A DNA stretch of 64,000 nucleotides from assembly GCA_964531785.1 (NCBI GenBank), contig CAZHFF010000001.1, positions 84,338-148,337 of the forward strand, read 5' to 3'. A program made the translations under genes and the position numbers. The notes under the pieces were generated by a model, which was not told the origin of the DNA, searched no databases, and saw nothing but the letters and a program-made list of their open reading frames with translations. Each line of letters begins with the position of its first letter. Positions within the stretch are counted from its first letter, which is position 1. This document shows positions 8,146-62,617 of this stretch, in pieces. Source of the DNA: an uncultured Candidatus Saccharibacteria bacterium. Its GTDB lineage: Bacteria; Patescibacteriota; Minisyncoccia; Phycocordibacterales; UBA12088.

Positions 8146-9633
8146 ATGGGAGGATACTTCGTGCGCACGGCTCTGGTGGCTGGTCTTACAGCATGGTTCG
8201 TGGTGATCGGCACCGTCCCGTCCGCTCACGTTGTGGACGAGCCGTTCGTAGGGTTCTCATTGCCGGTCGAGCAGAGCACACGTGCACCGTTTTCGCAGGG
8301 TGACGTGCGGCTTGCTGCCCGCGCACCGGCCCCTGCTCCCACGCTAGACACCCTGCTTGCCGCGGACGGTGTTTCTGAACTTGCCCCTCTGCCTGCGGCA
8401 GAAGCTCCGGCACGAGCTGCTTGGCTCGTACCGGACCGGGAACACACCCTCGGGTGTCCGTTCGTACCTGCGCCGGGACGTATCATCATAGACCTTACCG
8501 AAGGCAGTACGGCGCGGCTTGAGGACCGTCCGCTTGTTGCTCACAGGACCGCGTCGGAAGCACAGAGTTCGCAGGCTGTAACATTTGGACCAGGGCAGTA
8601 TGTGATCCGGGTCGCGACCTTAGATCACGATGACGGTGACCGCCGCATCGAGCTTGACGAGCGATGGTACGTGGCGTTCTTTGATCAAGCAGGGACCGAG
8701 ATCGTCCGGACCAAACCGACACGCGACCTGGAGCTCTCTGAGCGTGTCGTGCTCGAGCAGCTCGAACGATCGCTCACGATATCGAGACAAGTCAGCATGG
8801 TCCGTGTGGTGCATGACGCATTCCCCGGAAAGGAGCCGAACGCACTGCTTCCGCTCTGTGTTGCGCTAGATCAGGTACGTTCGCCGGTCCTTGCGCTGGC
8901 ATCCTCGCTCGTGCCGGCCCAAGAGCCATCGGTCACGTGTCCTATCCCGAAACGGGAGAACCGAACGATCGTCGATCTTACGAAAGGCGGGACCGTGCCG
9001 CTTGCCGAACTGTTTATCCGTTCCGATGGCGCCGAGCAAGATGCCATGCTGCCCGCGGCCCCGCTCTACCTGCAGCCAGGCAGCTACGAGGTGCGGTTCG
9101 CGGCACATGCGGCCGAGGGGGTTCGCACAGATGGTGAGCGTTGGCGTGCGGTGCTCTACGACCTGAGCGGTCAGCGGCAAGAGCTCGAAGTGACCCGAGA
9201 CATACCGGACTGGGAACAGACATTTGTCACGAAAGGATCGGACGAGGTCCTCATCGCACAGCCGATCGTACGATTCGCCCCGGTACACGCACGCTACCCG
9301 GACGCGGATGCGCATGCACTTGCGGTGCTCTGTGCGAGTTTTGATCGTCTGGGCATCGAAACGCGTCCCACAGTGGCAGCAGATGACGGGGCCATGAGCG
9401 CTGTGTTGCCCGAAACACACCAGGACGCTGATAGCACCGCTCTCGCGCAGACTGACGAGTCCTCGATGAACGGGACCGATTTGTCGACTTTGGAACCTGC
9501 GCAGGATGGAGACGAACAGCCTCAGGAAAGCGGCCCCCGGACACCGCTCGCGGTCGTTGCGATGACGTTCCTTGCACTGGTCATTCTTGGACTCCTGTGG
9601 CTCGGCGGCCTAGGCAGCCCAAGATCTACATGA
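8146..9633 (+). CDS. Hypothetical exported protein with an internally duplicated ~100-aa domain and a C-terminal TM anchor.
   Basis: N-terminal hydrophobic segment, two tandem related domains (LGCPFVPAPGRIIIDLTEGS... and VTCPIPKRENRTIVDLTKGG...), C-terminal TM PLAVVAMTFLALVILGLLWLGG. TGCATACT sits 7 nt before the ATG. Confidence 0.55.
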   Translation: MGGYFVRTALVAGLTAWFVVIGTVPSAHVVDEPFVGFSLPVEQSTRAPFSQGDVRLAARAPAPAPTLDTLLAADGVSELAPLPAAEAPARAAWLVPDREHTLGCPFVPAPGRIIIDLTEGSTARLEDRPLVAHRTASEAQSSQAVTFGPGQYVIRVATLDHDDGDRRIELDERWYVAFFDQAGTEIVRTKPTRDLELSERVVLEQLERSLTISRQVSMVRVVHDAFPGKEPNALLPLCVALDQVRSPVLALASSLVPAQEPSVTCPIPKRENRTIVDLTKGGTVPLAELFIRSDGAEQDAMLPAAPLYLQPGSYEVRFAAHAAEGVRTDGERWRAVLYDLSGQRQELEVTRDIPDWEQTFVTKGSDEVLIAQPIVRFAPVHARYPDADAHALAVLCASFDRLGIETRPTVAADDGAMSAVLPETHQDADSTALAQTDESSMNGTDLSTLEPAQDGDEQPQESGPRTPLAVVAMTFLALVILGLLWLGGLGSPRST

Positions 9634-9665
9634 ACCGGAAGCACGAGAAAGCGGAACCGATTCGC

Positions 9666-10313
9666 ATGTTCAGCAAGAAGTGCCGGGCACGGCTCTTGTT
9701 GTTCGGTGTTGCTGCAGCTGTGCTCACTTGTCTGTGCTGGCTTAGCTTCATGGACGCGGTAGGCAGGGTACAGGAGGAGCTTAACCGAGCACGCGTTCTC
9801 ACGATCATCGACAGTGCGGCGCTCTTCGTGCCAAGTCTCTTGGATGAACCCGATGTCCTGCGGGACGCGATGCGGTCGCTCGTTTTAGAGTACGCTGCAG
9901 TGCAGGCGGTGAGGATCGTAGCACCCCACGGGCCCGACTGGCGTGTCTACCTGACCGACACGGGCGATGGGGAAGGGGCGATCGAACGGGCCGTGCCAGA
10001 GCACTATGCTCGCGCATACGCTGACCCGTCCCGAACGTTCAGAGCAGGCGAGGGACAGAACTCCACATCGGTACGCGCACTCGCGAACGGGGGCTCGGTG
10101 CAGTCGCTCATCGTCGTTACCCATCGTCTGTCAGCGGCGGACCGTACGGCCGCGTATACGACGCTCACGTACCTTGGAGGGCTTGCGCTTCTGTTACTCG
10201 TGCTCGTTCTGGTCCTCGGGGGTTTGTTGCTCTGTGCTCGCGCCCTGGGTCACTCTGGTCTAAGGCAGTACGTACAGCAGCAAACAGGACCCGAGGCTGG
10301 TGTGCGTGCGTAG
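9666..10313 (+). CDS. Hypothetical two-TM protein with sensor-like topology.
   Basis: Start moved to the internal Met (MFSKKCRARLLLFGVAAAVLTCLCWL) to avoid overlapping the upstream gene. TM segments at both ends flank a soluble domain. Confidence 0.45.
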   Translation: MFSKKCRARLLLFGVAAAVLTCLCWLSFMDAVGRVQEELNRARVLTIIDSAALFVPSLLDEPDVLRDAMRSLVLEYAAVQAVRIVAPHGPDWRVYLTDTGDGEGAIERAVPEHYARAYADPSRTFRAGEGQNSTSVRALANGGSVQSLIVVTHRLSAADRTAAYTTLTYLGGLALLLLVLVLVLGGLLLCARALGHSGLRQYVQQQTGPEAGVRA

Positions 10314-10347
10314 CTACGTGTGGGGATAACTGCTACACATTCCCTTC

Positions 10348-23784: not shown

Positions 23785-24831
23785 ATGAGCCGGCTCACGT
23801 TCCTGGCTGCGCTGTTCGTAGTGGCGTTCGTAGGCGCTGAGTGTGCATACGCAGGTTTTGGTATCACGCCGCCCTACGTGCGGAACGATCGTCTGACCCA
23901 GGGGTCTCAGTACACCCAGGAGATCATCATCGTACGCGGTGATCCGGTCGACGACCTCAAGGCGGAGATCGCAGTCAACGTTCCCGGTATCGAAGGCTGG
24001 ATCTCGATAGACCGGGGGAACGAGTTTTTGCTTCCCGCAGGCGTGAAGCAGATTCCCATCCAGGTCACCATACGCGTGCCACAATCCGCGGCATACGAGC
24101 GTCATCAGGGGAATATTCGGATCCGGACCACGTCACCTGACCCGGCTTCCGGTGTGTCGATCGCGCTTGGTGCGCAGATCGACGTCGACATACGTGTGGT
24201 CGATGAGATCCGTGATTTCGAGGTCAAACGGGTACAGATCAGCGAGACCGAGGAGCCCCGCCGCTTCTGGTGGCTCGAGTATCCCGGCAAGATCACGTTC
24301 ACCATGGGTATCGAGAATACGGGAAATGCGCCCACCGCGCCTGCCCGGGTACAGTTCGACATCTACGACAAGCGCGGGAACGTCGTGCTCGAGAGCACCC
24401 AGAACACGAACAGCATCGAGTCCGTGCTGCCGTTCGAGACCCGTGATGTGGTGGCATACCTGCCGACCCGACTTCCCCCAGGAGCATACCTGGTGAAGTA
24501 CTCCGTGTTCCGTTTTGAGGATGAGGTCAAGCGTTCGGGCGAACTCACGTTGTCGGTATTGCCGCAGGGTACCCTGTCAGCCTATGCCGGGTACGGGCTC
24601 GATGGCTTGTCGCTCAAGGACAAGCTCACGCTGATCATACCGGTGGGGCTTCTCGTATTCTTGCTCCTGGTAACGGTCCTTGTTTTGAATCTCCGGAGAC
24701 ACCGAAAGCGCAGGCAACCGGCGCGTAGACGGCAGCAGGTTGATGATGACCCCCCACCTCCCGCTCATCCGCGCCCTCGTGCGGCCACATCGGGCCACGG
24801 CGTTGTCGACCTCTCGAGAAGGAACCGTTAG
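23785..24831 (+). CDS. Cell-surface protein: signal peptide, beta-sandwich domains, C-terminal TM anchor and basic/Pro-rich tail.
   Basis: MSRLTFLAALFVVAFVGAECAYA signal peptide. C-terminal TM LTLIIPVGLLVFLLLVTVLVL followed by RRHRKRRQ. AGGTACAAT sits 8 nt before the ATG. First gene of the cohesin/dockerin cluster. Confidence 0.55.
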   Translation: MSRLTFLAALFVVAFVGAECAYAGFGITPPYVRNDRLTQGSQYTQEIIIVRGDPVDDLKAEIAVNVPGIEGWISIDRGNEFLLPAGVKQIPIQVTIRVPQSAAYERHQGNIRIRTTSPDPASGVSIALGAQIDVDIRVVDEIRDFEVKRVQISETEEPRRFWWLEYPGKITFTMGIENTGNAPTAPARVQFDIYDKRGNVVLESTQNTNSIESVLPFETRDVVAYLPTRLPPGAYLVKYSVFRFEDEVKRSGELTLSVLPQGTLSAYAGYGLDGLSLKDKLTLIIPVGLLVFLLLVTVLVLNLRRHRKRRQPARRRQQVDDDPPPPAHPRPRAATSGHGVVDLSRRNR

Positions 24832-24834
24832 AGT

Positions 24835-26031
24835 ATGTGGGGCCGCTTCTCTCTGTGTGCACGTGAGGTATGCCTCTTGGCGGTGGTGCTTGGCGCACTG
24901 CTCGTGTCCCTTGCGTCGGGTGTGCCGCGCGACGTAGGAGCACAGGTGTATGTTGCAACGACCACCGTGTCGCTCACCGTTTGCGGTGACGGTGTCGTGA
25001 GCGGTGCGGAGTTCTGTGACGACGGCACGAATACCGGGGCGTACGCTGGCTCTATTGCTGGACGGAACTGCGACCCGCTCTGCCGATCCTACGGCCCCTA
25101 TTGTGGTGACAGCATTATCCAGGTGTTCTATGGCGAGGAGTGTGATGATGGGAATAACAGCTCAGGAGATCTGTGCAACAATATTTGCCAGAACGAGACA
25201 CCGCCGGTCACCGTGGGTGGCGGTGGAGGCGGTACGACGGGTGGCGGTGGCGGAAAGAGCAGCGGTACCGGTCAGACGGGGATACCGGGCGCCTCGACGC
25301 AAGGTAACATCGATTTCGTCGGGGAAACGACCGTGCTGGTACGCGGTATGGCGTACCCCGGCGCCACGGTGAGCATTCTGCGTGACGGTGAGCTCGAGCG
25401 CGTCGTCGAGGCGGATTCGAGCGGCATGTTCAACTATGCGCTCAGTGGCCAGACCGCAGGCATCACGACGTTCGGTTTTTGGGCGCTCGATCGAGCGAAC
25501 CGGAGCTCGATCACCTACTCGGCAACGTTCCAGATCGTTGAGAACGCCGCTACCACGCTCTCAGGCATTCTCATACCGCCGACGATCGCGGCAGTACCTG
25601 AAAAGGTACCACCCGGCAGTTCCGTGCAGTTCGAAGGCACCGCGGCCGCGAACAGCTCGGTCCGTGTGTTCGTGGATGCGGCCGATACCCCCGAGGAGAC
25701 CAAGGCAGCTCAATCCGGTGCATATGTCCTTGCGTATGATACGAAAGACCTCGCGGCAGAGCAGTTCCATACGGTGAAAGCCCACTATGTTGACGCGTCG
25801 AACAGCGAGCTTAAGAGCGGTTTCAGTGCACTGCTCAACTTCTACGTGGGCACGCGTGACGTAGCGTCGACCGTGACCGCCGACCTCAATGGCGACCGTG
25901 CGGTGAACCTGACCGATTTCTCGATACTGCTCTTCAATTGGAACTCGAACAACCCGGTGGCTGATATCAACAAGGATGGGGTCGTGTCGCTGCCGGACTT
26001 TTCCATTCTCCTCTTCTACTGGACCGGCTAG
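24835..26031 (+). CDS. Secreted dockerin-containing protein with two Myxococcus-type cysteine-rich repeats and a Gly-rich linker.
   Basis: Two CGDG....E.CDDGN...C repeats. GGGGGGTTGGGGGKSSGTG linker. C-terminal dockerin type-I duplicated Ca-binding repeats DLNGDRAVNLTDFSILLFNW and DINKDGVVSLPDFSILLFYW. Confidence 0.6.
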   Translation: MWGRFSLCAREVCLLAVVLGALLVSLASGVPRDVGAQVYVATTTVSLTVCGDGVVSGAEFCDDGTNTGAYAGSIAGRNCDPLCRSYGPYCGDSIIQVFYGEECDDGNNSSGDLCNNICQNETPPVTVGGGGGGTTGGGGGKSSGTGQTGIPGASTQGNIDFVGETTVLVRGMAYPGATVSILRDGELERVVEADSSGMFNYALSGQTAGITTFGFWALDRANRSSITYSATFQIVENAATTLSGILIPPTIAAVPEKVPPGSSVQFEGTAAANSSVRVFVDAADTPEETKAAQSGAYVLAYDTKDLAAEQFHTVKAHYVDASNSELKSGFSALLNFYVGTRDVASTVTADLNGDRAVNLTDFSILLFNWNSNNPVADINKDGVVSLPDFSILLFYWTG

Positions 26032-26123
26032 CCGCTATGGTGAGGAAACACCCTTGCCCGAGTACCAGCGCTGTCCACCGCGCCAGTATCTTCTTGCTTG
26101 CTGGCTTGGGGTATACTGTATGC

Positions 26124-27170
26124 ATGCGTGCGCTCAGAGCACCTCTGTTTCTGCTACTTGCCGTGTATATGCTGCCGTTTCCGGTACAAGCGGCGCGGGT
26201 GTACCTTGACCCTGGTGCGACCGAACAAGGCAGGCTCGATACGTGGTACCTTCCGGTACGGATCGACACCGAAGGAGCCTGTATCAATGCGGTCACGGTG
26301 AAGGTGAACTATGACCCTGCGCTCGTGAGCGTGATCGATACCTCGCGTGGCAACTCGATCATACCGCTCTGGGTAGATCACCCGAGCGTCGCCCGTGAAG
26401 AAGCGGACCAAGAGGTCGGCGTCGTTTCTTTCACCGGGGGTATTCCTGGCGGCTATTGTGGCCGTGTCCTCGGTGATCCGGGCCAGACCAATACGCTTCT
26501 CACGCTTGTGGTGACAGGCGCGTCGGGCGGGCGGCCGCTCGAAGTCCCGGTCAAGACGCTCTTTACGCTCGATCCGACCACGACCGCATACCTGCACGAT
26601 GGGACCGGCATGGCAGCTGCCATGACGCTCCTCGGGACCGAGGTCACGCTCTATGAGGGCACCAGCACTCCGGCGAACGTCTGGCTCGATGAGGTGCGGA
26701 GCGATACGATCGCGCCTGAGCTGTTCGACATCACCCTCGTACGCGGTCCTTCTGAGGGAAATGTTCGCCACTACATCGTCTTCTCGACGACCGATAAGCA
26801 GAGCGGGATCGATCACTATGAGGTCCGTGAGACCGATCCGCTGCGTTTTGGCTTCCTGACGCTCTTTCCGGACAAGAGCAGCTATTGGATCGAGGCATCA
26901 AGCCCCTACATTCTGCGCGACCAGACACTGCGATCGAAGATCCTGGTCAAAGCCGTCGACAAGAACGGCAATGAGCGGATCGTGACGCTCATGCCAGAAC
27001 TCGATCCACTGGAGCGCGTGCTCCACCCGACCATACTCGCCCTCCTTGCGGTGATCATCGGAGTCCTGGCGTTGATCATCGTCCTGTATACGCGAAGGCG
27101 ACGCACGACGAAACGTCCCGAAACCTTAGGCGGCGAACCCCATGACCATGAAACACAAGATCGTCCTTAG
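26124..27170 (+). CDS. Cohesin-like domain surface protein with C-terminal TM anchor.
   Basis: Start at MRALRAPLFLLLAVYMLPFPVQAA, a signal peptide, with GGGGTATACT 6 nt upstream. Cohesin-like pattern VYLDPGATEQGRLDTWYLPVRIDTEGACINAVTVKVNYDPALVSVIDTSRG. C-terminal TM ILALLAVIIGVLALIIVLY followed by RRRR. Confidence 0.6.
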   Translation: MRALRAPLFLLLAVYMLPFPVQAARVYLDPGATEQGRLDTWYLPVRIDTEGACINAVTVKVNYDPALVSVIDTSRGNSIIPLWVDHPSVAREEADQEVGVVSFTGGIPGGYCGRVLGDPGQTNTLLTLVVTGASGGRPLEVPVKTLFTLDPTTTAYLHDGTGMAAAMTLLGTEVTLYEGTSTPANVWLDEVRSDTIAPELFDITLVRGPSEGNVRHYIVFSTTDKQSGIDHYEVRETDPLRFGFLTLFPDKSSYWIEASSPYILRDQTLRSKILVKAVDKNGNERIVTLMPELDPLERVLHPTILALLAVIIGVLALIIVLYTRRRRTTKRPETLGGEPHDHETQDRP

Positions 27171-28980
27171 TTTCTTGTTCGCGCTTGGTGCGGTCGCGAA
27201 TGCGCCTCATGCAGCGCAGGCAGCGCAGGACGCGGGGCTCTACCTCACGCCGGCGACCGCCGTATTCCCGGTGGGCGAGCCTTTTACGGTCGAGGTTCGT
27301 ATCAGGAATACCGGTGGATCGATAGGTACGGCGGACGCTACGGTGGGATATGAGCCGTCGGATCTCGAGTTCGTTTCGTTCTCGTCGGACGGCTCGATCT
27401 TTGCGTCTATCATCGTCCCCGAAACGAACGAACGAGGTCGGGTCAAGGTCCAGGGCGTGGTCTCGCACGGGAGGTCTTGGAGCGGAGAAGACGGCCTGTT
27501 CGCGACCTTGACGTTCCGTCCGCTGCGGAGCACAGCGACCGAGCTGCGTTTTATGCAGGGTGCCGCGACACCGCTCATGGCGGCGGTCGGCGCATCGAAT
27601 GTCCTGTCACGGCTGGGAGCTGCGACCTACACGCTCGTGCCGAAGGAGATGGTACCTGCGCCAGCTGCGGTCATTGCGGCAACACCTGCTCAGGAGGGTT
27701 CGATCGAGATCACGCCACTTCCTTTGCCGGACGATGGCTGGTTCGGAACAACGTCCGTAAAACTCGCATGGTCCTTGCCTCAGTCGGTCACTGAGATGCG
27801 CACGATCCTCTCCGACAAGCCAGTCGACACGCCTTCAAAGCTGTACCCGGTCCCGGTCTCGTCGGTACTACTCGACGGTCTCGCTGAGGGGACCAACTAC
27901 TTCCATATGCAATGGAAACAGGAGGGGGTCTGGGGGCCCGTTACCCGCTATCCGATCAAGGTCGACCTGACGCCACCTGAACATGTGATCGTGACCGAAG
28001 CCGATCGAACCGACCCGACCGACCCGCGCGCAGCGTTCGTGATCGACAGTGCGGACCTGCTCTCTGGCATCAGTAGCTATTTGATCTCGATCGACAACGA
28101 TGAGCCCGAGGTCTGGGAAAAGAGCAAGGACGAGCTCTATCGTCCGCAGGGTCTTACACCGGGGAGTCACTTGATCACGGTCACTGCACGCGATCGCGCA
28201 GGGAACACGAAGACCGCAGAGCTCGAGTTCCTCGTGCGGTCGCTCGACCCACCTACCATGACCCGCTCTCCTGACCACGTCCTTGCCGGCAACCAGATCA
28301 CCATCGAGGGAACGACCTACCCGAACGCTGAGGTCACGACGTACATCAGTTTCAAGGATGGGGAAGCGACCGAAAAGAAGGTGCGGAGCGATGCGTCGGG
28401 CGCGTTCATCGTCACACTGACCGAGGAGGCACGTCCGGGCAAGTATACCATCTGGTTCTCCGTTGCTGATGAGCGCGGCGCGGTGAGCCCGCCCTCGATC
28501 AAACGGTCGGTCACGGTGACGCAGCCGTATATCATGCTGTTCGGGTCGACCGCGGTCACGTACATGTCGGTGATCGTGCCGCTCGTCGGCCTCATCCTGC
28601 TCCTTGGTTTGATCCTTTGGCTGCTCTACACCTATGTGCGCGGCTACCGAGCCCGCGTTCGGCGTGAGACCGACCAAGCGTACCGTGCGGTCCAAGACGA
28701 GTTCAGCAACCTCGAACAGGACATGGTCAAGCAGATCGGCGTGCTCGAGCAGGCGAACCATGCACGTAAGCTGACCCGCGAAGAGCTCCGCATCCTGACC
28801 GAGCTACGCGAGAAGCTGAACAAGATACAGGAGCACATCTCATCAGAGATCGATGATATCGAGCCGGTCGCACACGAACTCCGGGTACCACCAAAGCGAC
28901 AACGTGAAGAAAGCGCTCTCGCTCGAGTGCGCGAAACGCAGCCGTCGAAACGGACGATAACGATCGAACGAGTGAGGTAA
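27142..28980 (+). CDS. Cohesin-like domain surface protein with Ig-like domains, a TM anchor and a cytoplasmic coiled-coil tail.
   Basis: Signal peptide. LYLTPATAVFPVGEPFTVEVRIRNTGGSIGTADATVGYEPSDLEFVSF resembles a cohesin. TM VIVPLVGLILLLGLILWLLY, then a charged helical tail. Confidence 0.6.
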   Translation: MTMKHKIVLSFLFALGAVANAPHAAQAAQDAGLYLTPATAVFPVGEPFTVEVRIRNTGGSIGTADATVGYEPSDLEFVSFSSDGSIFASIIVPETNERGRVKVQGVVSHGRSWSGEDGLFATLTFRPLRSTATELRFMQGAATPLMAAVGASNVLSRLGAATYTLVPKEMVPAPAAVIAATPAQEGSIEITPLPLPDDGWFGTTSVKLAWSLPQSVTEMRTILSDKPVDTPSKLYPVPVSSVLLDGLAEGTNYFHMQWKQEGVWGPVTRYPIKVDLTPPEHVIVTEADRTDPTDPRAAFVIDSADLLSGISSYLISIDNDEPEVWEKSKDELYRPQGLTPGSHLITVTARDRAGNTKTAELEFLVRSLDPPTMTRSPDHVLAGNQITIEGTTYPNAEVTTYISFKDGEATEKKVRSDASGAFIVTLTEEARPGKYTIWFSVADERGAVSPPSIKRSVTVTQPYIMLFGSTAVTYMSVIVPLVGLILLLGLILWLLYTYVRGYRARVRRETDQAYRAVQDEFSNLEQDMVKQIGVLEQANHARKLTREELRILTELREKLNKIQEHISSEIDDIEPVAHELRVPPKRQREESALARVRETQPSKRTITIERVR

Positions 28981-29025
28981 ACGGTAGACCCGGCGCCCTA
29001 TTGTGTTGCTTGCGTCAATCGGGCC

Positions 29026-29754
29026 CTAGGACCAAAAGAGTACGAGGCCGCCGAGCCGGGTTGAGTCAGCCATGTTCGAGATGATGATCGCAAGGTCGGC
29101 GAGCGTTATCTTGCCGTCCTGATCAAGGTCGTACTGCGCCTCGTAGGCGAGGAACAGCCTTGACGAAACGATGCCAAAGTCGATCAGGTTGACCTGCGCA
29201 TCACCGTTTATATCGGGTGAGGGTGCCGACGCTTCCCGTACCGAGAGGATGATCGGACTTTTTTTGCTGGTGAGCTCTGTGCCCTGTCCGTCGTGGGCGA
29301 GTACGTGCGCCTCCCCCCAGAGCACGCTCGCCTTACCCTGTTCGAGCGGACGGAGCGTGAGCGTGAAGAGCGTCCCGGACCCGGTAAAACCGGTCGGAGA
29401 GACGACGCCGCCTGCAAATCGTAGCTCGCCGTCCTTCAGCACCGGTTCCTCTGCCCAGAGGTCAATGATCGAGCCGTCGTAGGCGATCCGCTCGACCACG
29501 AACTTGTCCATAGGCACAGCGATCGTGCCGCTCACCACGTTGATCGGCTGCTTGCTCGCTAGGTTGACCTGGAGCGTAACCTGCTCACCGACCGCAACGA
29601 AGCGCCCATCTTCGGGTACCAGGTACACGTCATACGGGCTTCGTATGAAGGAGAGCGATGTTGCCAATAGAACGATGACCGGCAGGCCTACTGCCAGGGT
29701 GTACCTATGGCGCAACAGCTGGTGTGTTACCATCCGGAACATCAGTACCTCCAT
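29026..29754 (-). CDS. Signal-anchored protein carrying both a cohesin-like domain and a C-terminal dockerin; possible adaptor.
   Basis: Start moved to MEVLMFRMVTHQLL...LAVGLPVIVLLATSL, a TM segment. Cohesin-like YLVPEDGRFVAVGEQVTLQVNLASKQPINVVSGTIAVPMDKFVVERIAYDGS. Dockerin repeats DINGDAQVNLIDFGIV and DLDQDGKITLADLAIIISNM. Confidence 0.55.
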   Translation of the reverse strand: MEVLMFRMVTHQLLRHRYTLAVGLPVIVLLATSLSFIRSPYDVYLVPEDGRFVAVGEQVTLQVNLASKQPINVVSGTIAVPMDKFVVERIAYDGSIIDLWAEEPVLKDGELRFAGGVVSPTGFTGSGTLFTLTLRPLEQGKASVLWGEAHVLAHDGQGTELTSKKSPIILSVREASAPSPDINGDAQVNLIDFGIVSSRLFLAYEAQYDLDQDGKITLADLAIIISNMADSTRLGGLVLFWS

Positions 29755-29835
29755 AGTACCAGGAACAGGATCCCTGTGGAGCCTGTGCTGGTGATAACTC
29801 GGTCCGCATGCTCGCGACGCGCGTATACTGGAGGT

Positions 29836-30351
29836 ATGAAGAGCGTCCTGGTGGTCGGTCTGTTCTGCTTGGTGTGCCTGCTCGGTTTTGGTATCTGGTA
29901 CTACAGCGACCCGAGTCCGGAACCAGCAAGCGACGAGTCCAGTGTTCCTCCCGATGGGATCCCGGTGCCGATCTACTTTTACCAGCAAGCGACCGATGTC
30001 GATCAGAACGGTAACCTGCTGTGCTCCCGCAAGGGTGTCGTGTCCGTGCGACGCTACCTGCCACCGAGCCACACCTTGGCTGATCGTATCGAGCTCGTGC
30101 TTGGCGGCAAGCTTACGGCGAACGAGCGCGCGCAGGGCATCGCGACCGAGTATCCGCTCGCCGGCGTGCGGCTCGTGAGTGCGGTCATTGAGAACCGTAA
30201 GGCGATACTCACGTTCGAGGATGTGCTCGGCAAGACGAGAGGTGGAGCGTGTCGTTCGGCCATCCTTTGGTACCAGCTCGAGCAGACCGCGCTCTCGTTC
30301 GGAGAGGTGCGCGATGTCGAGTTCCGGCCTTCCAGTCTGTTCCAGCCCTAA
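29836..30351 (+). CDS. GerMN domain protein, signal-anchored.
   Basis: Start at MKSVLVVGLFCLVCLLGFGIWYY. CGTATACT then GGAGGT precede the ATG. GerMN-like pattern (IPVPIYFY...LVLGG.LTANERAQGIATEYP...ILTFEDV...VEFRP). Confidence 0.55.
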   Translation: MKSVLVVGLFCLVCLLGFGIWYYSDPSPEPASDESSVPPDGIPVPIYFYQQATDVDQNGNLLCSRKGVVSVRRYLPPSHTLADRIELVLGGKLTANERAQGIATEYPLAGVRLVSAVIENRKAILTFEDVLGKTRGGACRSAILWYQLEQTALSFGEVRDVEFRPSSLFQP

Positions 30352-33584: not shown

Positions 33585-34076
33585 TTACGGACGGTGAAAC
33601 ACAAGGTGCCCGTCCGGCTCTAGGACGGCACCGAATTTTCTATTGAAGCGCTGACTTGCGACATTCGCTGGATTGACCCAGGTCCTGACGTACTCGATCT
33701 TTGGATCGCGAAAGAGATGATCGAGCACGGCCCGCTTCACACTGCTGCCGATGCCGCGACCTGCGAGCTCATCGGGTCCAATGAGGGTTTCGCCCCAACG
33801 TACGTCTTTCGACCCGAACCAAACGGAAACAGAGCCGATCGGTGTGTTATCACGCCCGCGAAGCATCCACTGCCATGTTCGCTCCGGCCACGGGGAGAGT
33901 ATCAATGATGAGCCTTGGATGCTATCTAGTGGCACCTGAAGGGGTCCACCCATGAAGCGCGCCACACGCTCTTTACTGCGCCACGCATACCAGAGCGGCA
34001 GGTCCTCGTACTCGAAGGGAACGAGCACAAGGTCGCGCATCATCTGCAACACAGGTGTTTTTGGTGCAAGGATCAT
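33585..34076 (-). CDS. GNAT family N-acetyltransferase.
   Basis: 163 aa with a GNAT fold pattern (IGSVSVWF....GIGSSVKRAVLDHLFRDPKIEYVRTWVNPANVASQRFNRKFG). Confidence 0.7.
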   Translation of the reverse strand: MILAPKTPVLQMMRDLVLVPFEYEDLPLWYAWRSKERVARFMGGPLQVPLDSIQGSSLILSPWPERTWQWMLRGRDNTPIGSVSVWFGSKDVRWGETLIGPDELAGRGIGSSVKRAVLDHLFRDPKIEYVRTWVNPANVASQRFNRKFGAVLEPDGHLVFHRP

Positions 34077-34330
34077 TGTATTCCTCCCAGTACCATGAAT
34101 TGAAAGGGGCTTAACGCCACGACCACGCCCGACGTGATGAACGACCGAAGCGGAAAAAGGCTTGCGGTCCAGTCACGCTGCATAACAGGTCGGATTATGC
34201 CAACGAATGAGGCAAGAGTAATGAGCATCCATGCCTCGAGGCATTCGTTCGCTGCGTCCTCGGCAAGGCGTAGCCAGAGCGGTATGAATCCTATCGTGAT
34301 CGCCAGATTAATTATGAGCACCGAAAACAC
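34073..34330 (-). CDS. Small hydrophobic membrane protein, or the frameshifted continuation of the upstream gene.
   Basis: Only the C-terminal ~85 aa of the listed ORF 34073..34564 look protein-like (VFSVLIINLAITIGFIPLW...). A GTG at 34330 overlaps the upstream gene's stop. Alternatively, a +1 shift at a TTTT run would join it to 34312..34677. Confidence 0.3.
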   Translation of the reverse strand: MFSVLIINLAITIGFIPLWLRLAEDAANECLEAWMLITLASFVGIIRPVMQRDWTASLFPLRSFITSGVVVALSPFQFMVLGGIQ

Positions 34331-34677
34331 CGATGCTTTCGCTTGGTTACGATGAAGAGTGTGAATCCGAACGTTGACAGCGCAAGTACGAAGCCGTCGA
34401 GTAGTCGTAGCGTACCGTATGACTCCGTAATGATACAAGTCACGATGATGAAGACGGCACCACCAAGCCCGGTTACAAGATATGCGTTCGTTCGCAAATC
34501 GCGCTGTCCCTCCCACCACAGAATGGCAAGGTTCATGGCCGAGCTTGCGGTAAGGACGAGCCATGTCGTCAGTGCGGTATTAACCGCGCCTGTAGCCACG
34601 CCGGCAAGATAGAAGCCGAGCGAAGCTAACGTGAGTACCGCCGTAAGGTATGGCGCGATTCGATTGAACTGCCGCAT
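34312..34677 (-). CDS. Hypothetical integral membrane protein.
   Basis: Four predicted TM helices (MRQFNRIAPYLTAVLTLASLGFYLAGVATGAV...). Adjacent to and overlapping the next minus-strand ORF. Confidence 0.4.
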   Translation of the reverse strand: MRQFNRIAPYLTAVLTLASLGFYLAGVATGAVNTALTTWLVLTASSAMNLAILWWEGQRDLRTNAYLVTGLGGAVFIIVTCIITESYGTLRLLDGFVLALSTFGFTLFIVTKRKHRCFRCS

Positions 34678-34800
34678 GGCAGCCTCCTTCCTAATGCAAG
34701 GTCCAAGAAATAAAAAAGCACGAATATGTGCCTACTGTTTGCAATTATAACACAATACAGGTTGTTGAGCAAATTTCACGTATCTCCTTTCCGGTATCTC

Positions 34801-34870
34801 GTTGTGCACTTTTTACTTTTGAGCTGTACTTTTGCCTTTTGATCTTTGCATTTTAACCTGCTCTTGCATC
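34801..34870. repeat. AT-rich element (copy E, reverse orientation) overlapping the 3' end of the SET-domain gene.
   Basis: GTGCACTTTTTACTTTTGAGCTGTACTTTTGCCTTTTGATCTTTGCATTTTAACCTG is the reverse complement of a sequence closely related to copy A (GATCAAAAGGCAAAAGTACAGCTCAAAAGTAAAAAGTGCAC). Confidence 0.5.
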
Positions 34871-35310
34871 AAAGCTTTATCCCTACACCCTTTACACTTA
34901 CACCCATACGGCTTGATGAACTCATCGACATACTCTTTGCCGTAATCGTAGGTCAGCTCTTCGCCTGGCTGTATCACGCGTCGCGCTTTGATGAACACCC
35001 GCTTGCTGGCAAGCACAGATTCGCAGTTAGCCCGTGCGCATTGGTGGTTGATGTAGCGTGCGAGGTTCGTTCGGGCGCTTCCGTCTATCGTCCAGCGTGC
35101 ATTCACTTCGAACAGGTACTTGGTCTTCCAGCCAAGGATCGCCTCGTTCCGGTACAAGGTACCCGTGTACTCGAGGTACTGGCCGGGTTCGATGCGTGAG
35201 GTCGCGAACAGTCCCAGACCGGCGCTCGACCGACCGATGCGAACGTGGGTACGGGGTATGGTGCGCGTGCGTCGTACGTCCATATGGCGCTCTATCGTAG
35301 CACGGACCAC
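34813..35310 (-). CDS. SET domain protein (putative protein-lysine methyltransferase).
   Basis: RYINHQCARANCE (NHxC motif), ELTYDYG, post-SET CKCKGCRDK. The last ~15 codons lie inside an AT-rich repeat element. Confidence 0.75.
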   Translation of the reverse strand: MVRATIERHMDVRRTRTIPRTHVRIGRSSAGLGLFATSRIEPGQYLEYTGTLYRNEAILGWKTKYLFEVNARWTIDGSARTNLARYINHQCARANCESVLASKRVFIKARRVIQPGEELTYDYGKEYVDEFIKPYGCKCKGCRDKALMQEQVKMQRSKGKSTAQK

Positions 35311-58644: not shown

Positions 58645-58972
58645 TGCGTCCTCCCGCGCGACTCAACTGTTCACCATAAAACCATCTACCAACTTCACTG
58701 TCAATAGTAGGCACAGAACATGCCTTCGCGTTTCGATACCCGCACGCGAGCAAAGAAGTTTGCTCGCTCCTCTTCACCTCAACGAAAAACGGCACGCTGA
58801 TCGCGTGCACGTTTTCGTAATCGGTGGAGATTGCTGAAGGAAGTTAGAGCCTGTTTGATTGAATGCAGGGTTACACATTTCCTACGTCTGGTGGATGAAT
58901 GGGTACCCCCAATACCGTTTTAAACTATGAAAAGGGAATGGGGATAGCTGGCGATTAGAACCTTGGCATGCA

Positions 58973-60277
58973 TTATTTCTTCCGATATACAATCGCAGAT
59001 GGTACACGCCTGCCGTTTGATGGTGACCATAGGAAAGGATGCTCCTCTTTCTTTGGCCAACGTACGTAGTGTTGATTGCCAAATGTTTTGACTTTGCCAT
59101 TTAGCTCTTTAACAGCAAGTCGTGAAGATTGGCCTGGATCAAGATGATATGCCCATTGCACGGCTTCTTTTGGAAGCAACAATGCGGTCTCTTGCGGCGT
59201 AATACCTTGAAAATGTTCTGTCTGGGGTGCGCCATCAAATACTCGCGTATGAATGTTTCCGTCAGTATCCTTATAAATTACCGATCGTGCCATCCTACGT
59301 TCTCCAAATGGCGGATGTTCACCAAGAGAAAGATCATGATTGATCTCGTGATCTTTCTTATCTATAAAATGATGTACATTTGGACCGATACTGACTGCAG
59401 ATTCAATGTCTGTAAGACTCAGTGTGTCGAGGGTAAGGGGTTGTACTGGATCCCCAACTTTGAAATGACTAGCATCAACACCTTTCAACTGGAAAATAAA
59501 ATTTCCCGCAAAGAGATTGGTATGACCCCCCGCGATAACTTGTTTGATACGCAATACGCCATCATTATCTGCCAGTACAACTACATCAAACGAGTCGTTG
59601 TCTTGTGGTGTAAAATTTACTGCCTCATCCAGAACCCGTTTTGTGCCAGTGTTTTGAGCTTGTACATGCCGCACCACACAGCACGCGGAATTATACAAAA
59701 CCATATGGTTTTCATTCGTTTCATTGCGATGTTGAGACCGTGCGCCTACCCACTCGTATTCATCTGAACCAAAGCCGATGGTTCCTTTCGCTCGTACTTC
59801 TTTTACATCAAACCCACTCTCTGTTGAGAACACTGCCGGGCGATCCGCTGCTGGCAATCCCACAACATAACGTCCCCGTATGCAAAGATTGTACGTCGGG
59901 TCAGTAGGCACATATGCACCCTCGTCAACGAGATGGAAAAATCCGGCGTTCATGGCACCGATTGCATGTTCGTCGTTTATGAGCAATCGTTTGAGCGAGA
60001 CAGCATGGCTTGCAGTAAATACCTCCGGTGTTGTGGAAGGATTTTCATCCGGTAATGACAAATCGTAAATGTTTGTGAACGCCTGGTCGCCTAACTCAAC
60101 CGTATTCTGCGAAAATACAGCACCTCCCATAGCCTCTCTCGTTTCTGCGTTTGCCCGCACTTCAAAAGGGGACTGGTCGGTACGCAGCGATTCAACACTA
60201 GGAATTTCAAGTCCAGTTTCTTCCCCATATGTCTCTATCTGTTTCTGGTTAAATGATTCAAAAAATTGCTTCGCCAT
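58973..60277 (-). CDS. Phosphodiester glycosidase family (NAGPA/DUF2233-like) protein, no signal peptide. Islet cargo.
   Basis: AIGAMNAGFFHL and C-terminal SVIYKDTDGNIHTRVFDG....AYHLDPGQSSRLAV match the NAGPA-domain pattern (aiNGGFF ... vvvDGR ... NLDGGGS). Low-GC codon usage. Confidence 0.45.
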   Translation of the reverse strand: MAKQFFESFNQKQIETYGEETGLEIPSVESLRTDQSPFEVRANAETREAMGGAVFSQNTVELGDQAFTNIYDLSLPDENPSTTPEVFTASHAVSLKRLLINDEHAIGAMNAGFFHLVDEGAYVPTDPTYNLCIRGRYVVGLPAADRPAVFSTESGFDVKEVRAKGTIGFGSDEYEWVGARSQHRNETNENHMVLYNSACCVVRHVQAQNTGTKRVLDEAVNFTPQDNDSFDVVVLADNDGVLRIKQVIAGGHTNLFAGNFIFQLKGVDASHFKVGDPVQPLTLDTLSLTDIESAVSIGPNVHHFIDKKDHEINHDLSLGEHPPFGERRMARSVIYKDTDGNIHTRVFDGAPQTEHFQGITPQETALLLPKEAVQWAYHLDPGQSSRLAVKELNGKVKTFGNQHYVRWPKKEEHPFLWSPSNGRRVPSAIVYRKK

Positions 60278-60286
60278 GATTTTGTA

Positions 60287-60922
60287 CTACGTAAGTCGCT
60301 TGCGAATATCTTCTCGCTGTAAGAAAAATTGTACAGGATAAGTTATTTCTTTGGGGATGTGGTCAACTGTAAACCAATCATATCTTGCTCCTTCCTCATC
60401 AAGCTTTACATCTTTTATGGTTGTGTGTGCAAGATACAAATACCAGTAATGAATGTCAGCTCCGCCGACGCATTCGTCTCCGGCAATCTCGCTTTCAAAT
60501 ACGAGTTCAGCATCAGGCACAATGATACCTACTTCTTCTTCGGTCTCGCGCAGAGCAGCTACCTTCGGATCTTCGCCGTTTGAAATATGTCCCGCGGGAA
60601 TGGTGTAGAGAAATGGATACTTCGTACGCAAAAAAAGCAGGAGTTCCTTTTTTTCATTTACCAGCAAAGTCCCTGCGCTGTAGTGTACCAATTCGTTCGC
60701 TTTGTTGAATGTCTGCATCATGCCTGGATCGTAGATTAACACCCGCGCATTGAGCTTTCCGCATACGCGACAGTGATACATGTTTCGCCCACTTTCTTTT
60801 GCTTTTTCCACATCAGTTGAACCACATACAAAACAATACTGTGTTTTTTGAGCAGGAAGTATTGGAGGAAATTGTGAGCGGTGAGTCATATGCTCACTAT
60901 ACAGCGTCTTAAACAATATCAT
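60287..60922 (-). CDS. NUDIX hydrolase with an N-terminal CxxC...CxxC zinc ribbon. Islet cargo.
   Basis: Nudix box GHISNGEDPKVAALRETEEEVGI. N-terminal CFVCGS...CRVCGK. Low-GC. Confidence 0.8.
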   Translation of the reverse strand: MILFKTLYSEHMTHRSQFPPILPAQKTQYCFVCGSTDVEKAKESGRNMYHCRVCGKLNARVLIYDPGMMQTFNKANELVHYSAGTLLVNEKKELLLFLRTKYPFLYTIPAGHISNGEDPKVAALRETEEEVGIIVPDAELVFESEIAGDECVGGADIHYWYLYLAHTTIKDVKLDEEGARYDWFTVDHIPKEITYPVQFFLQREDIRKRLT

Positions 60923-60958
60923 AGGGGTTCCAATTTCCTCACATCTCTCCCAAAATAC

Positions 60959-60988
60959 GCAAAAACGAGCCTTATGAAAAAAGGCTCG
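60959..60988 (-). terminator. Rho-independent terminator on the minus strand between the TIR element and the NUDIX gene.
   Basis: Stem CGAGCCTT/AAGGCTCG with a 7-nt loop, followed on the minus strand by UUUUUG. Confidence 0.55.
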
Positions 60989-60993
60989 TACAT

Positions 60994-61357
60994 GTGGACT
61001 TTTAGTAGCCTTTGCCCGAACCTATTTCGAGTCAAAGACCGACTAGAATCGCGCTTGCCCGTCCGTAGCCTTGGCGAAGGCGGGCGCCTCCACGGCTCCG
61101 CTGCGCTCCGCCGTCCCGCAAAACGTCCCCGTCCTTCTCCACTACGACGTAAACGACGGCGACGGGTGGGGCAGCAAAAACGAGCGAAGAACGGGGACGT
61201 TTCGCGAAAGAGCGGAGGACGAACGGAGGCGGTGCCAAGTGTGCCCGTAGGGCGCACTTGGCAACGGCGGAGTGAGGACGGAGCGACGGAGGCTCGAGAT
61301 CATGCGGCGGTCTTTGACCCGAAGTAGGTTCGGGCAAAGGCTGCTAAAAGTCCACCG
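60994..61357. repeat. MITE-like element of about 364 bp with ~48-bp imperfect terminal inverted repeats and a GC-rich, highly self-complementary interior.
   Basis: Left TIR GTGGACTTTTAGTAGCCTTTGCCCGAACCTATTTCGAGTCAAAGACCG at 60994..61041. Its reverse complement, with 3 mismatches, is at 61308..61357. The only interior ORF is an Arg-rich low-complexity frame. Confidence 0.5.
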
Positions 61358-61402
61358 ATTACGAAAACGTGCACGCGATCAGCGTGCACGTTTTCGTAAT
61401 CG
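61354..61402 (-). terminator. Perfect 24-bp inverted repeat that includes the tmRNA 3' terminus; hairpin, terminator or att core.
   Basis: CCACCGATTACGAAAACGTGCACG-cgatcag-CGTGCACGTTTTCGTAATCGGTGG. The right arm overlaps the 29-bp direct repeat. Confidence 0.5.
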
Positions 61403-61811
61403 GTGGAGATGGCGGGTATCGAACCCGCGTCCAACGAGAATTCTGAGAAATGCTCTACAGGTTTAGACTGTTTTTTCCGCGCAAGGCGGATCCAAGAAGG
61501 GTAGGGCGAAACAGACAAAATCTACCCGTCCGGCCATGCTTGGTCTCGATGTCTGTGGTGATGGTAACCGGTCGACGTCAGAGCCGAATGGTATTACACC
61601 GAGTTCCGCGTATCGGCGTCAAACGGAACCGATGGCAAGGCGTAACTGTTTAGGTTAGGCCATTGCGAAGCCAAGGTCTTTCATCTGGAAAGGTGAAAGG
61701 ATGGCCCGTGCGGTTTTTTCTGCACGTATCTTTTTCCAGAGTTTTACGACTTCCTGGAGGTCGACCTGCACATTTCAAAGAACGATCCCGCTGTCTAAGC
61801 CGGTCATCCCC
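61403..61811 (-). ncRNA. ssrA: tmRNA (ssrA).
   Basis: 5' GGGGAUGACCGGCUUAGACAGCGGG. The 3' end is ...GACGCGGGUUCGAUACCCGCCAUCUCCACC. The GGGGAUG/CAUCUCC acceptor stem has a G3:U70 pair. T-loop UUCGAUA. The resume codon GCA is at nt 89, and the candidate tag AEKTARAILSPFQMKDLGFAMA ends at a UAA. The terminal A of CCA is not encoded. Confidence 0.85.
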
Positions 61812-62073: not shown

Positions 62074-62520
62074 TTAGCCTTCTTCCTCCTCATCTTCATC
62101 GCATGTACACGGCAGCACGTGTTTGCCGCAGAGGCATGCGAACCAGGCCTCCGCCGGTTCGATGACGCCGCGGAGCATAGCGTACTCATCATCGTCAAGG
62201 ATCCGCGGTTCCTCGGCATCATAGCGGTCATCCGCGAATACTGCTCGCAGGAGCTGGTCCTGCACAACGTCGGGGTCCTCTGCAGAACCACGCGGTGGTC
62301 GGAGGAGCCCCTTGAGTTTCCTCGTGGCGTTCTTGACCTTTTTTAAGCGGGTCAAGCTGATGCCGACCTCGGCACCGCACGCGTGCGCGTACGCGACCGG
62401 ACGCTCTGCTGTGCCTTCAAAAACAGCAGTCGCAAGATACTGAAGCGCACGCTCGCGCGCTTCACCGTGCAGGGCGAGTTCGTCCACAGCACGGTCGCAA
62501 TTGGTGACGCAACAGTCCAT
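62074..62520 (-). CDS. Hypothetical Cys-rich acidic protein encoded between smpB and ssrA.
   Basis: AAGGAGG sits 8 nt before the ATG of MDCCVTNCDRAVDEL. Cys clusters CCVTNC and CLCGKHVLPCTC. Acidic C-terminus DEDEEEEG. The tool's longer ORF begins at a GTG. Confidence 0.45.
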   Translation of the reverse strand: MDCCVTNCDRAVDELALHGEARERALQYLATAVFEGTAERPVAYAHACGAEVGISLTRLKKVKNATRKLKGLLRPPRGSAEDPDVVQDQLLRAVFADDRYDAEEPRILDDDEYAMLRGVIEPAEAWFACLCGKHVLPCTCDEDEEEEG

Positions 62521-62617
62521 AGAGACATTCCTCCTTTCTGGTACGGCCATTCCGTACCCTCTCACAAGATCGAATATGTAGCTGTAAAGGTTCAGTTCAA
62601 GTTCCCTCCGTACCTAC

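Follow-up and report, generated by a model that had tools for sequence, protein, structure and literature searches.

The window analysed here is a 64,000-nt stretch from an uncultured Candidatus Saccharibacteria bacterium (contig CAZHFF010000001.1, positions 84,338 to 148,337), and our subject is a small islet within it that adjoins ssrA, the gene for transfer-messenger RNA (tmRNA). The full-length ssrA lies on the minus strand, where it was delimited by ARAGORN (61402-61811) and by Rfam RF00023 (61401-61811; 129 bits, model positions 1-374 covered), so "downstream" of ssrA means lower window coordinates. The encoded tag peptide is AEKTARAILSPFQMKDLGFAMA, and a nearly identical tag is found in the top SmpB match, a locus we refer to as L002. 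The 3′ end of the gene reads ..CAUCUCCACC[G] / ..CCAUCUCCACC(G), with the CCA incompletely encoded.

At this 3′ end we found one of two exact direct copies of a 29-nt sequence, GCGTGCACGTTTTCGTAATCGGTGGAGAT. The proximal copy (A_p; 61382-61410, plus strand) comprises the final 9-10 nt of ssrA and ~20 nt that form the first, ascending arm of the terminator hairpin 3′ of the gene. The distal copy (A_d; 58803-58831, plus strand) is 2579 bp away and identical at 29/29 positions; 0 such repeats were expected (100 shuffles). Within the window, the 29-mer is restricted to the ssrA locus. An earlier inspection of the letters alone (hereafter, the sequence-only reading) had described the 29-mer as occurring exactly twice and its last 8 nt as the end of the tmRNA. 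The two direct copies stand, but that reading missed a third, inverted copy with 2 terminal mismatches (61348-61376, minus strand), and both ARAGORN and Rfam put the overlap with the minus-strand gene at 9-10 nt rather than 8.

The inverted copy, A′, together with the loop GATCA (61377-61381) occupies 61348-61381 (plus strand) and pairs with A_p in a hairpin, H1, whose core is a perfect palindrome with 26-nt arms (61351-61376 / 61382-61407). The sequence after H1 on the tmRNA strand is CTTTTAG, and the hairpin looks like the intrinsic terminator of ssrA; it also drew spurious miRNA-like matches in the Rfam scan. The distal copy pairs in a second hairpin, H2, with a degenerate partner arm, a′, which with its loop TGATC spans 58768-58802 (plus strand). 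H2 is terminator-like on both strands, and a′ is a candidate for the terminator arm that ssrA originally had and that was later displaced. The arms a′ and A′ are ~75% similar (25-30% diverged), while the 29-mer copies are identical and the inner 31 nt are perfect. Just outside H2, an exact 12-nt copy of the tmRNA T-arm and loop (TTCGATACCCGC; 58732-58743, plus strand) lies inverted relative to ssrA, with a score reached by 1/1000 shuffles. Read along the tmRNA strand, the order of parts is tmRNA, α (the reverse complement of the 29-mer), loop TGATC, α′ (completing H1), TTTT, a foldback element, the cargo, a second α, GATCA, and α″ (completing H2).

The AT-rich stretch between the repeats is confined to 58832-60993, which has 44.5% GC compared to a mean of 58.6% (sd 1.9) for 2162-bp windows elsewhere in the 64 kb (z = -7.4), and the GC break coincides exactly with the edges of this cargo. 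The two cargo genes have GC contents at third codon positions (GC3) of 0.38 and 0.41, compared to 0.52-0.76 (mostly 0.6-0.76) in the other open reading frames (ORFs) selected from the window. The cargo is thus foreign by composition and probably recently acquired, and its GC content is close to that of the nearest homologous module, L082 (45.9%). The sequence-only reading had proposed a foreign origin and an interior AT-richer than the flanks; windowed GC and GC3 bear out the first, whereas the second holds for 58832-60993 and fails for the remaining 60994-61381, which has a host-like GC content of 61%.

This GC-rich remainder contains a 362-nt non-coding foldback element (60994-61355, not assigned to a strand) with 48-nt terminal inverted repeats. 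The two arms (60994-61041 / 61308-61355) are 94% complementary, further hairpins are nested at 61106-61217 and 61230-61266, and the region has a folding z-score of -17.9. The non-coding element bounded by terminal inverted repeats that had been noticed from the letters is therefore real, although by composition it is not part of the foreign cargo. Because the foldback is host-like in GC and the operon is AT-rich, the islet is a composite of two parts that probably differ in origin. No Rfam match to the foldback was obtained (E <= 1), its ORFs had no Pfam match, and no second copy was present in the window or in any fetched locus; tandem repeats were likewise absent. On these grounds we rejected both a known RNA and a multicopy miniature inverted-repeat transposable element (MITE). 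In being non-coding and strongly self-complementary with terminal inverted repeats, the element resembles MITEs, foldback elements and palindromes of the repetitive extragenic palindromic (REP) type; it differs from them in being single-copy in the available sequence, in lacking a recognizable target-site duplication of its own, and in having an arm that runs on into the ssrA terminator hairpin.

On the minus strand, the AT-rich cargo opens at its upstream edge with a terminator-like hairpin followed by a T-run (60989-60955), which would insulate the genes from ssrA read-through; the L082 homologue carries an analogous, non-homologous hairpin. Next come an extended -10-like box, TGTATAGT (60896-60903), 6 nt before the ATG at 60889, then a Nudix gene, a gene for a protein resembling N-acetylglucosamine-1-phosphodiester α-N-acetylglucosaminidase (NAGPA), a 141-nt AT-rich spacer (58832-58972) that runs from the NAGPA-like stop codon to the distal 29-mer and is not homologous to the L082 flank, and the distal hairpin. 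DNA homology to the L082 module begins at the box, and the same arrangement at the gene start is seen in L082. The box is the probable promoter of the cargo, of a leaderless type, and from this layout the two genes are predicted to form one operon. The outer ends of the cargo, GATTGCTG... and ...CTCGTACAT, are not inverted repeats despite a GTGGA duplication at its edges, unlike those of a DDE transposon or MITE.

The first cargo gene (60287-60922, minus strand; longest ORF 211 aa) encodes a NUDIX hydrolase with a Zn-ribbon of the CxxC..CxxC type. The likely start is at 60889, giving a protein of 200 aa that matches the gene call in the Logan assembly. Pfam PF00293 scores 61.4 bits against a cut-off of 21.1, and the Nudix box GX5EX7REUXEEXGU is intact (GHISNGEDPKVAALRETEEEVGI). 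Matches of NudC and MutT type were weak, with NCBIfam NAD(+) diphosphatase at 19.3 bits versus a cut-off of 158, and the resemblance to NudC is limited to the arrangement of a CxxC..CxxC ribbon preceding the Nudix box.

The second gene (58973-60277, minus strand) encodes a 434-aa protein with the NAGPA/DUF2233 fold. Its PF09992 match is just sub-threshold (23.0 bits vs a cut-off of 25; E = 1e-4), several homologues have precomputed PF09992 matches, and a profile search of Protein Data Bank (PDB) sequences retrieved NAGPA catalytic domains (E = 3.6e-4). The AlphaFold2 model is confident (predicted local distance difference test score 92.4, predicted template modelling score 0.91), and Foldseek against the PDB returned 5h3k (E = 7e-17), 6ozd, 3ohg and six NAGPA entries (6pk*), with no other fold at E < 0.08. 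Alignment with 18 homologues revealed conserved INGGFF, LYNSACC and LDPGQS motifs, and no N-terminal signal sequence was apparent on inspection. The protein is therefore predicted to be cytoplasmic, with a phosphodiester-glycosidase fold, and not a recombinase. It shares this fold and the C-terminal LDxGxS region with NAGPA, Slr0280, BPSS2145 and BACOVA_00430, from which it differs by being cytoplasmic, only ~15% identical to the solved structures, and paired with a Nudix or an HD phosphohydrolase. The NCBIfam scores of both cargo proteins are far under any equivalog cut-off, which sets them apart from NAGPA and NudC proper. The descriptions of a NAGPA-like protein lacking a signal peptide and of a Zn-ribbon NUDIX hydrolase given from the letters alone were thus accurate.

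The same reading had suggested defence or anti-defence cargo, and here we found no support. In PADLOC, the NAGPA-like protein had zero matches and the Nudix protein matched only PDC-S07 (20 bits); PHROGs gave generic Nudix matches only, and IMG/VR held zero homologues of the NAGPA-like protein, so we set aside both a defence and a phage origin.

We searched for recombination functions in the islet and across the window. Between the repeats there is no integrase, excisionase or replication gene, as had been stated, the Nudix and NAGPA-like genes being the only ones; recombinase pseudogene fragments are also absent there. A Pfam scan of 33 window ORFs across the 64 kb revealed no integrase, resolvase or transposase domain, and neither a regular expression for tyrosine-recombinase boxes nor tblastn with the L002 serine recombinase gave a hit in the window. 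A recombinase encoded by the cargo itself was rejected on the basis of the AlphaFold2/Foldseek fold and of Pfam, NCBIfam, PADLOC and PHROGs, which returned nothing recombinase-like. Integron attC-like and Xer/dif-like sites were set aside because no fitting core motifs were seen on inspection: the 29-mer has no GTTRRRY core and there is no array. Furthermore, intI is absent among the window ORFs scanned, and the cargo comes with a promoter-like box and a terminator of its own.

The nearest available relatives were identified by an SmpB-based scan of Genome Taxonomy Database species representatives. The top matches are metagenome-assembled genomes of high-GC Patescibacteria (Paceibacteria/Kaiserbacteria-like) with <=72% SmpB identity and a different region downstream of tmRNA, and comparison with them, which the sequence-only reading had proposed as a route to an empty site, yielded none. 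The host of the islet is likewise a high-GC patescibacterium of this Paceibacteria/Kaiserbacteria-like type. In distant relatives, a long terminator hairpin directly follows tmRNA, and its stem often extends into the ..CTCCAC end; because of this, a hairpin that overlaps the tmRNA 3′ end is a native feature of the lineage. Directly 3′ of tmRNA (8570-8959) in L002, the closest relative, lies a gene for a large serine recombinase (8841-10322, minus strand) with Recombinase and Zn_ribbon_recom domains. The match to the Resolvase profile starts only at position 63, which means that the catalytic N-terminus has been lost, and the locus has the appearance of an island that decayed at the same site. 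Given this truncated recombinase after tmRNA, the tmRNA 3′ end is a hot spot in the lineage, and one at which recombinase decay happens.

On the other side of ssrA, a 163-aa ORF (62074-62565, minus strand) with a host-like GC3 of 0.64 separates the gene from smpB, while in relatives such as L002 the two genes abut with a gap of ~60 nt. The ORF had zero matches in Pfam, NCBIfam, PADLOC and PHROG, and it may be a second lineage-specific insertion at the ssrA locus.

To place the cargo in a wider context, we collected homologous loci from metagenomic assemblies. Word-index searches gave 22 and 23 matches for the two proteins, often on shared contigs. For the metagenome scan, a profile built from all 19 homologues was too diverse, and the scan was rerun with 10 sequences. 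The NAGPA-like subfamily is rare: of 1.84 billion cluster representatives, 126 matched at E < 1e-30. The pair is adjacent in both gene orders, and distant members have an HD phosphohydrolase instead of the Nudix protein. This conserved adjacency and the replaceability of Nudix by HD point to a functional couple of phosphohydrolase and glycosidase, which probably acts in two steps on a nucleotide-linked or phosphodiester-linked sugar.

Some of these pairs are bracketed by repeats of host gene ends. In L085, two 54-nt direct repeats lying 2354 bp apart flank the pair; they are 76% identical and share, at their gene-internal edge, a 13-nt core without mismatches. Each copy holds the final 13 codons and the stop codon of a Pyr_redox_2 gene, and the differences between the copies are mostly synonymous. 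The L089/L092 repeats extend over 155 nt in the 5′ portion of a GIY-YIG gene. They are 81% identical, blocks of 23 and 19 nt being exact, and across the first 29 codons they differ by 12 synonymous and 2 non-synonymous changes. No recombinase was found inside either bracket. Because the differences are mostly synonymous, the bracket copies would appear to stem from different lineages, the incoming DNA having borne a piece of the donor's orthologue, and a xenologous duplicate of this kind would be the mark of an element that integrated at a gene end and supplied a surrogate copy of it. Weaker evidence of a bracket comes from L082, the closest module (73% identical), which has two orphan C-terminal fragments, LRA[ML][IV]DAVGT.IR. 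Neither L085 nor L082 contains a third attachment (att) site copy or tandem accretion.

We note several further features of these loci. The truncated GIY-YIG left bracket (L089 28-150) adjoins an IS3-family (rve) transposase (L092 2415-3233, plus strand). L093 and L094 alike contain a T2SSE (pilB-like) gene whose 5′ end is present twice, as 154-nt direct repeats (L093 4522-4675 / 10019-10172, 95% identical); the 5.5 kb enclosed by them include a NAGPA-like homologue that has no Nudix partner, together with transposases of the IS200-like Y1 and DDE types. In L086, a promoter-like 48-nt direct repeat (4275-4322 / 5558-5605, 85% identical) encloses a HicA-toxin/His_Phos_1 unit that immediately follows the pair's Nudix gene. 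Finally, L082, L083 and L084, which derive from three runs, share their starting position, located 16 nt ahead of the module's left bracket; the site may be a strain-level branch point, carry an insertion polymorphism or lie in a repeat.

Our favoured explanation, to which we assign a probability of roughly 55%, is that the locus is a passive, integrase-less islet at the ssrA 3′ end and terminator, mobilized in trans or of the kind known as cis-mobilizable elements (CIMEs), with an AT-rich two-gene cargo. In this scheme, donor DNA carrying the 29-mer and a perfect complementary arm, A′, would have recombined with the chromosomal 29-mer, which was thereby duplicated. The recombinase would have been supplied in trans from elsewhere, as for a CIME-like or satellite element; Campbell-type recombination through short homology is less likely. 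The incoming A′ would now end ssrA transcription (H1, then TTTT), the old imperfect arm a′ would have been shifted 2.58 kb away, and H2 would now terminate the cargo operon. The ~2.16-kb operon may have entered the distal arm of the foldback later, at GTGGA microhomology, and we consider this roughly as likely as the cargo having been part of the original element. What we observe directly are the repeats, the base composition, the identities of the genes, the lack of a recombinase in the islet and in the 33 window ORFs, and the return of the gene pair in similar brackets at other loci; the circular or donor intermediate, the crossover within the 29-mer, the trans-acting recombinase and the substrate of the enzymes are what we infer.

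The sequence-only reading had likewise invoked integration into tmRNA with attL and attR, and the geometry of the repeats, with a core and a displaced arm, agrees with it. Even with the cargo taken away, the foldback would have 26-nt direct repeats on either side at the ssrA end, so that the repeat is most simply explained by att-type recombination at the terminator of ssrA. The two-tier similarity at the locus (29/29, followed by ~75% between a′ and A′) is the same core-plus-diverged pattern as in L085 and L089, and we favour an att-type origin because an identity core with a displaced host arm fits better than simple palindrome symmetry. If this is correct, the empty junction would read ...ACGGCACGCTGATC-29mer-GGCGGGTATCG, and the circular junction would read ...GTGCACGCGATCA-29mer-TGCTGAAGGAAG, i.e., A′-GATCA-29mer-TGCTGAAGG. 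A secondary insertion of the cargo would imply a pre-cargo junction reading ...AATCGGTGGA-CTTTTAGTAGCC.

Several observations weigh against this explanation. The repeats are inverted as well as direct, as the 30 nt at 58799-58828 are the reverse complement of 61351-61380 and the loops of H2 and H1, TGATC and GATCA, are mutually reverse complementary. The reading of the direct repeats as attL and attR is therefore not unique, and the palindromic site weakens any direct-repeat argument more than usual. The share of ssrA in the repeat is only its 9-10 nt, the remainder being terminator. No empty site or circular junction was found, nor was a cognate integrase in the 64-kb window; no exact copy of the 26-mer turned up in IMG/VR or in JGI metagenome contigs, and exact-protein look-ups returned the locus only from run SRR9016294, so the genome has been seen in one run. 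Independent k = 31 contigs confirm the sequences and not the orientation of the islet, as their breaks fall inside the repeat. Among the homologous loci, the pairs in L086, L088 and L095 have no flanking repeat. Moreover, homology between the window and the L082 module is confined to the region from promoter through stop codon; this alignment led us to reject conserved element ends and implies that no conserved attP or element end travels with the genes.

Comparison with known systems places the islet close to, and partly outside, several of them. Williams is said to have described in 2002 sublocation classes of tyrosine-integrase islands at the 3′ ends of tRNA and tmRNA genes. Like such islands, the islet is a low-GC insert just 3′ of an intact ssrA, beside which a direct repeat holds the 3′ terminus of the gene (29/29 identity, 9-10 nt of ssrA). 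It differs in having no integrase beside ssrA or in the 64 kb, in its tiny size (2.55 kb), in a deviating composition limited to 58832-60993, and in a repeat that is half of a palindromic terminator, is also present inverted, and includes only those few nucleotides of ssrA. In Dehalococcoides, islands lie downstream of ssrA with a ~20-bp repeat of its 3′ end, and some units are att-flanked, have no integration module and are proposed to be mobilized in cis or trans (PMC3146451). The islet resembles these units in lying at ssrA with no integration module, and the relative L002 has a serine recombinase at tmRNA. The Dehalococcoides islands, however, are 10-30 kb long, with a crossover in the T-loop and with DsiB-bearing units in the same array (PMC3146451), whereas the islet is a single unit with no cognate integrase seen and a repeat mostly outside the gene. 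With repeats kept and recombination and transfer genes absent, it has the structure of the CIMEs defined for streptococcal integrative and conjugative elements (PMC5704250), the att function of its repeats being inferred.

Campbell-type or surrogate-end elements offer a further parallel. The L085 and L089/L092 pairs lie between xenologous host gene ends with an exact core, and the window has its exact 29-mer beside ~75%-similar arms. The L085 homology (13-nt core, 76% over 54 nt) is, in contrast, too short and diverged for RecA, making RecA alone unlikely there, and no recombinase is encoded.

As the strongest competing explanation, we explored the possibility that the palindrome came first, as a foldback or an inverted duplication of the ssrA end, and that the AT-rich operon (58829-60993) was inserted later into its distal arm at GTGGA with no site-specific integration, by illegitimate or microhomology-mediated recombination, e.g., after natural transformation. 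GTGGA at 58824-58828 (plus strand) is duplicated at 60994-60998, so it is found at both cargo edges. When 58829-60998 is removed in silico, 58782-58828 comes to adjoin 60999-61041, and the two together again form with 61308-61410 an unbroken inverted repeat of ~100 nt that contains a 44-nt stretch without mismatches. The repeated pentanucleotide may be a 5-bp target duplication from a secondary insertion of the cargo, or the microhomology at which that insertion took place, and the restored inverted repeat suggests that the cargo arrived separately from the repeat, a further point against an att-type event that brought both. Consistent with a palindrome-first history, 58792-58828 (37 nt) resembles the proximal site more closely when the two are compared inverted (94% of 47 nt) than when they are compared directly (83% of 53 nt), the distal loop is the reverse complement of the proximal one, the GC break falls exactly at the cargo edges, an inverted copy of the tmRNA T-arm lies outside H2, and terminator stems in relatives also extend into the tmRNA 3′ end.

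However, one inverted duplication predicts even decay, and what is seen is 31 perfect inner nt next to an outer arm, a′, with 25-30% divergence; a single inverted duplication as the sole source of all repeats is thus disfavoured. The extra GAT that lengthens the direct identity from 26 to 29 nt would need a 1/64 coincidence, the foldback stripped of its cargo would still lie between 26-nt direct repeats at ssrA, for which an att-type event is simplest, and homologous modules elsewhere have att-like brackets. We regard this explanation as unlikely, while taking it seriously.

A broader extension of the favoured explanation is that the islet belongs to an undescribed class of recombinase-free mini-cassettes (~2.3-2.6 kb), with the NAGPA-like and phosphohydrolase genes as their cargo, in bacteria of the candidate phyla radiation (CPR) and other uncultivated bacteria, which carry surrogate copies of gene ends and depend on a trans-acting recombinase. 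Their targets may include the tmRNA terminator, an oxidoreductase C-terminus and a GIY-YIG N-terminus, with an integron-like division of labour. We offer this class as a speculative proposal.

Alternatively, the islet could be the remnant of a tyrosine- or serine-recombinase island at ssrA whose integrase and other genes were deleted in situ, so that attL, attR and two cargo genes remain and the islet is immobile. CPR genomes are streamlined, L002 shows decay of this kind in a serine recombinase at tmRNA that has lost its N-terminal catalytic part, and CIMEs are decay products by definition (PMC5704250). Against this, the same two-gene unit is repeat-bracketed with no recombinase remnant at two or three unrelated loci, where parallel decay would be unlikely, and the interval between the window's own repeats is free of recombinase pseudogene fragments. 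Serine recombinases act at 2-bp crossover sites and hence do not leave 29-bp direct repeats. In situ decay therefore seems to us rather improbable.

The two remaining explanations are very improbable. The two-gene module might be autonomous, with the NAGPA-like or the Zn-ribbon Nudix protein as a new type of recombinase, as the NAGPA-like gene is the sole constant of the repeat-bracketed, recombinase-free units at different target genes; this is contradicted by the confident glycosidase-type NAGPA/DUF2233 fold with conserved catalytic-region motifs, by a partner gene that can be swapped for an HD phosphohydrolase, as is typical of a metabolic couple, by module ends that are not conserved, and by many homologues that have no flanking repeats.

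An assembly artefact, in which an AT-rich segment from another organism or position was joined via the 26-30-nt repeat, fares no better. The k = 31 assembly of the same run does break inside the repeat: the 2582-bp Logan contig L001 corresponds to window 58799-61380, cut at the 30-nt inverted repeat, which also led us to reject L001 as a circle, and the neighbouring contig L102 ends at 58821. Connectivity and orientation thus rest on the original assembler, and the composition is strongly unlike that of the host. Nevertheless, the L001 unitig joins the host-like foldback to the AT-rich cargo, and both its ends carry the 30-mer with which the flanking host contigs end as well; judging by the shuffles, unrelated genomes would not be expected to share 30 identical nt by chance, and a 26-30-nt repeat is far below read length and of a kind that standard assemblers resolve.

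Elsewhere in the window, a second, milder GC dip (34100-35050; 0.44-0.53) lies beside a GNAT acetyltransferase gene. Its two small ORFs (34073-34564, minus strand; 34846-35199, plus strand) have GC3 values of 0.52-0.53 and no Pfam match. A 2401-aa ORF (94-7299) and a cluster of genes for secreted cohesin, dockerin, Big and DUF4215 proteins (23785-30072) encode cell-surface machinery typical of CPR epibionts and are unrelated to the islet.

An islet at a tmRNA hot spot is a known kind of element; its cargo family is uncharacterized, and the palindromic nesting at this locus is unusual. The biology of mobile elements in CPR bacteria is poorly known, and the locus provides a clean example of a very small, non-autonomous DNA acquisition at a tmRNA hot spot in such a bacterium. 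If the recurrent brackets share no mechanism, it would be an ordinary decayed or passive islet; if they do share one, it would suggest that mini-cassettes in streamlined genomes are moved by a trans-acting recombination system. The analysis also flags a rare, uncharacterized and horizontally spreading enzyme couple, in which a cytoplasmic NAGPA-fold protein is paired with a Nudix or an HD phosphohydrolase.

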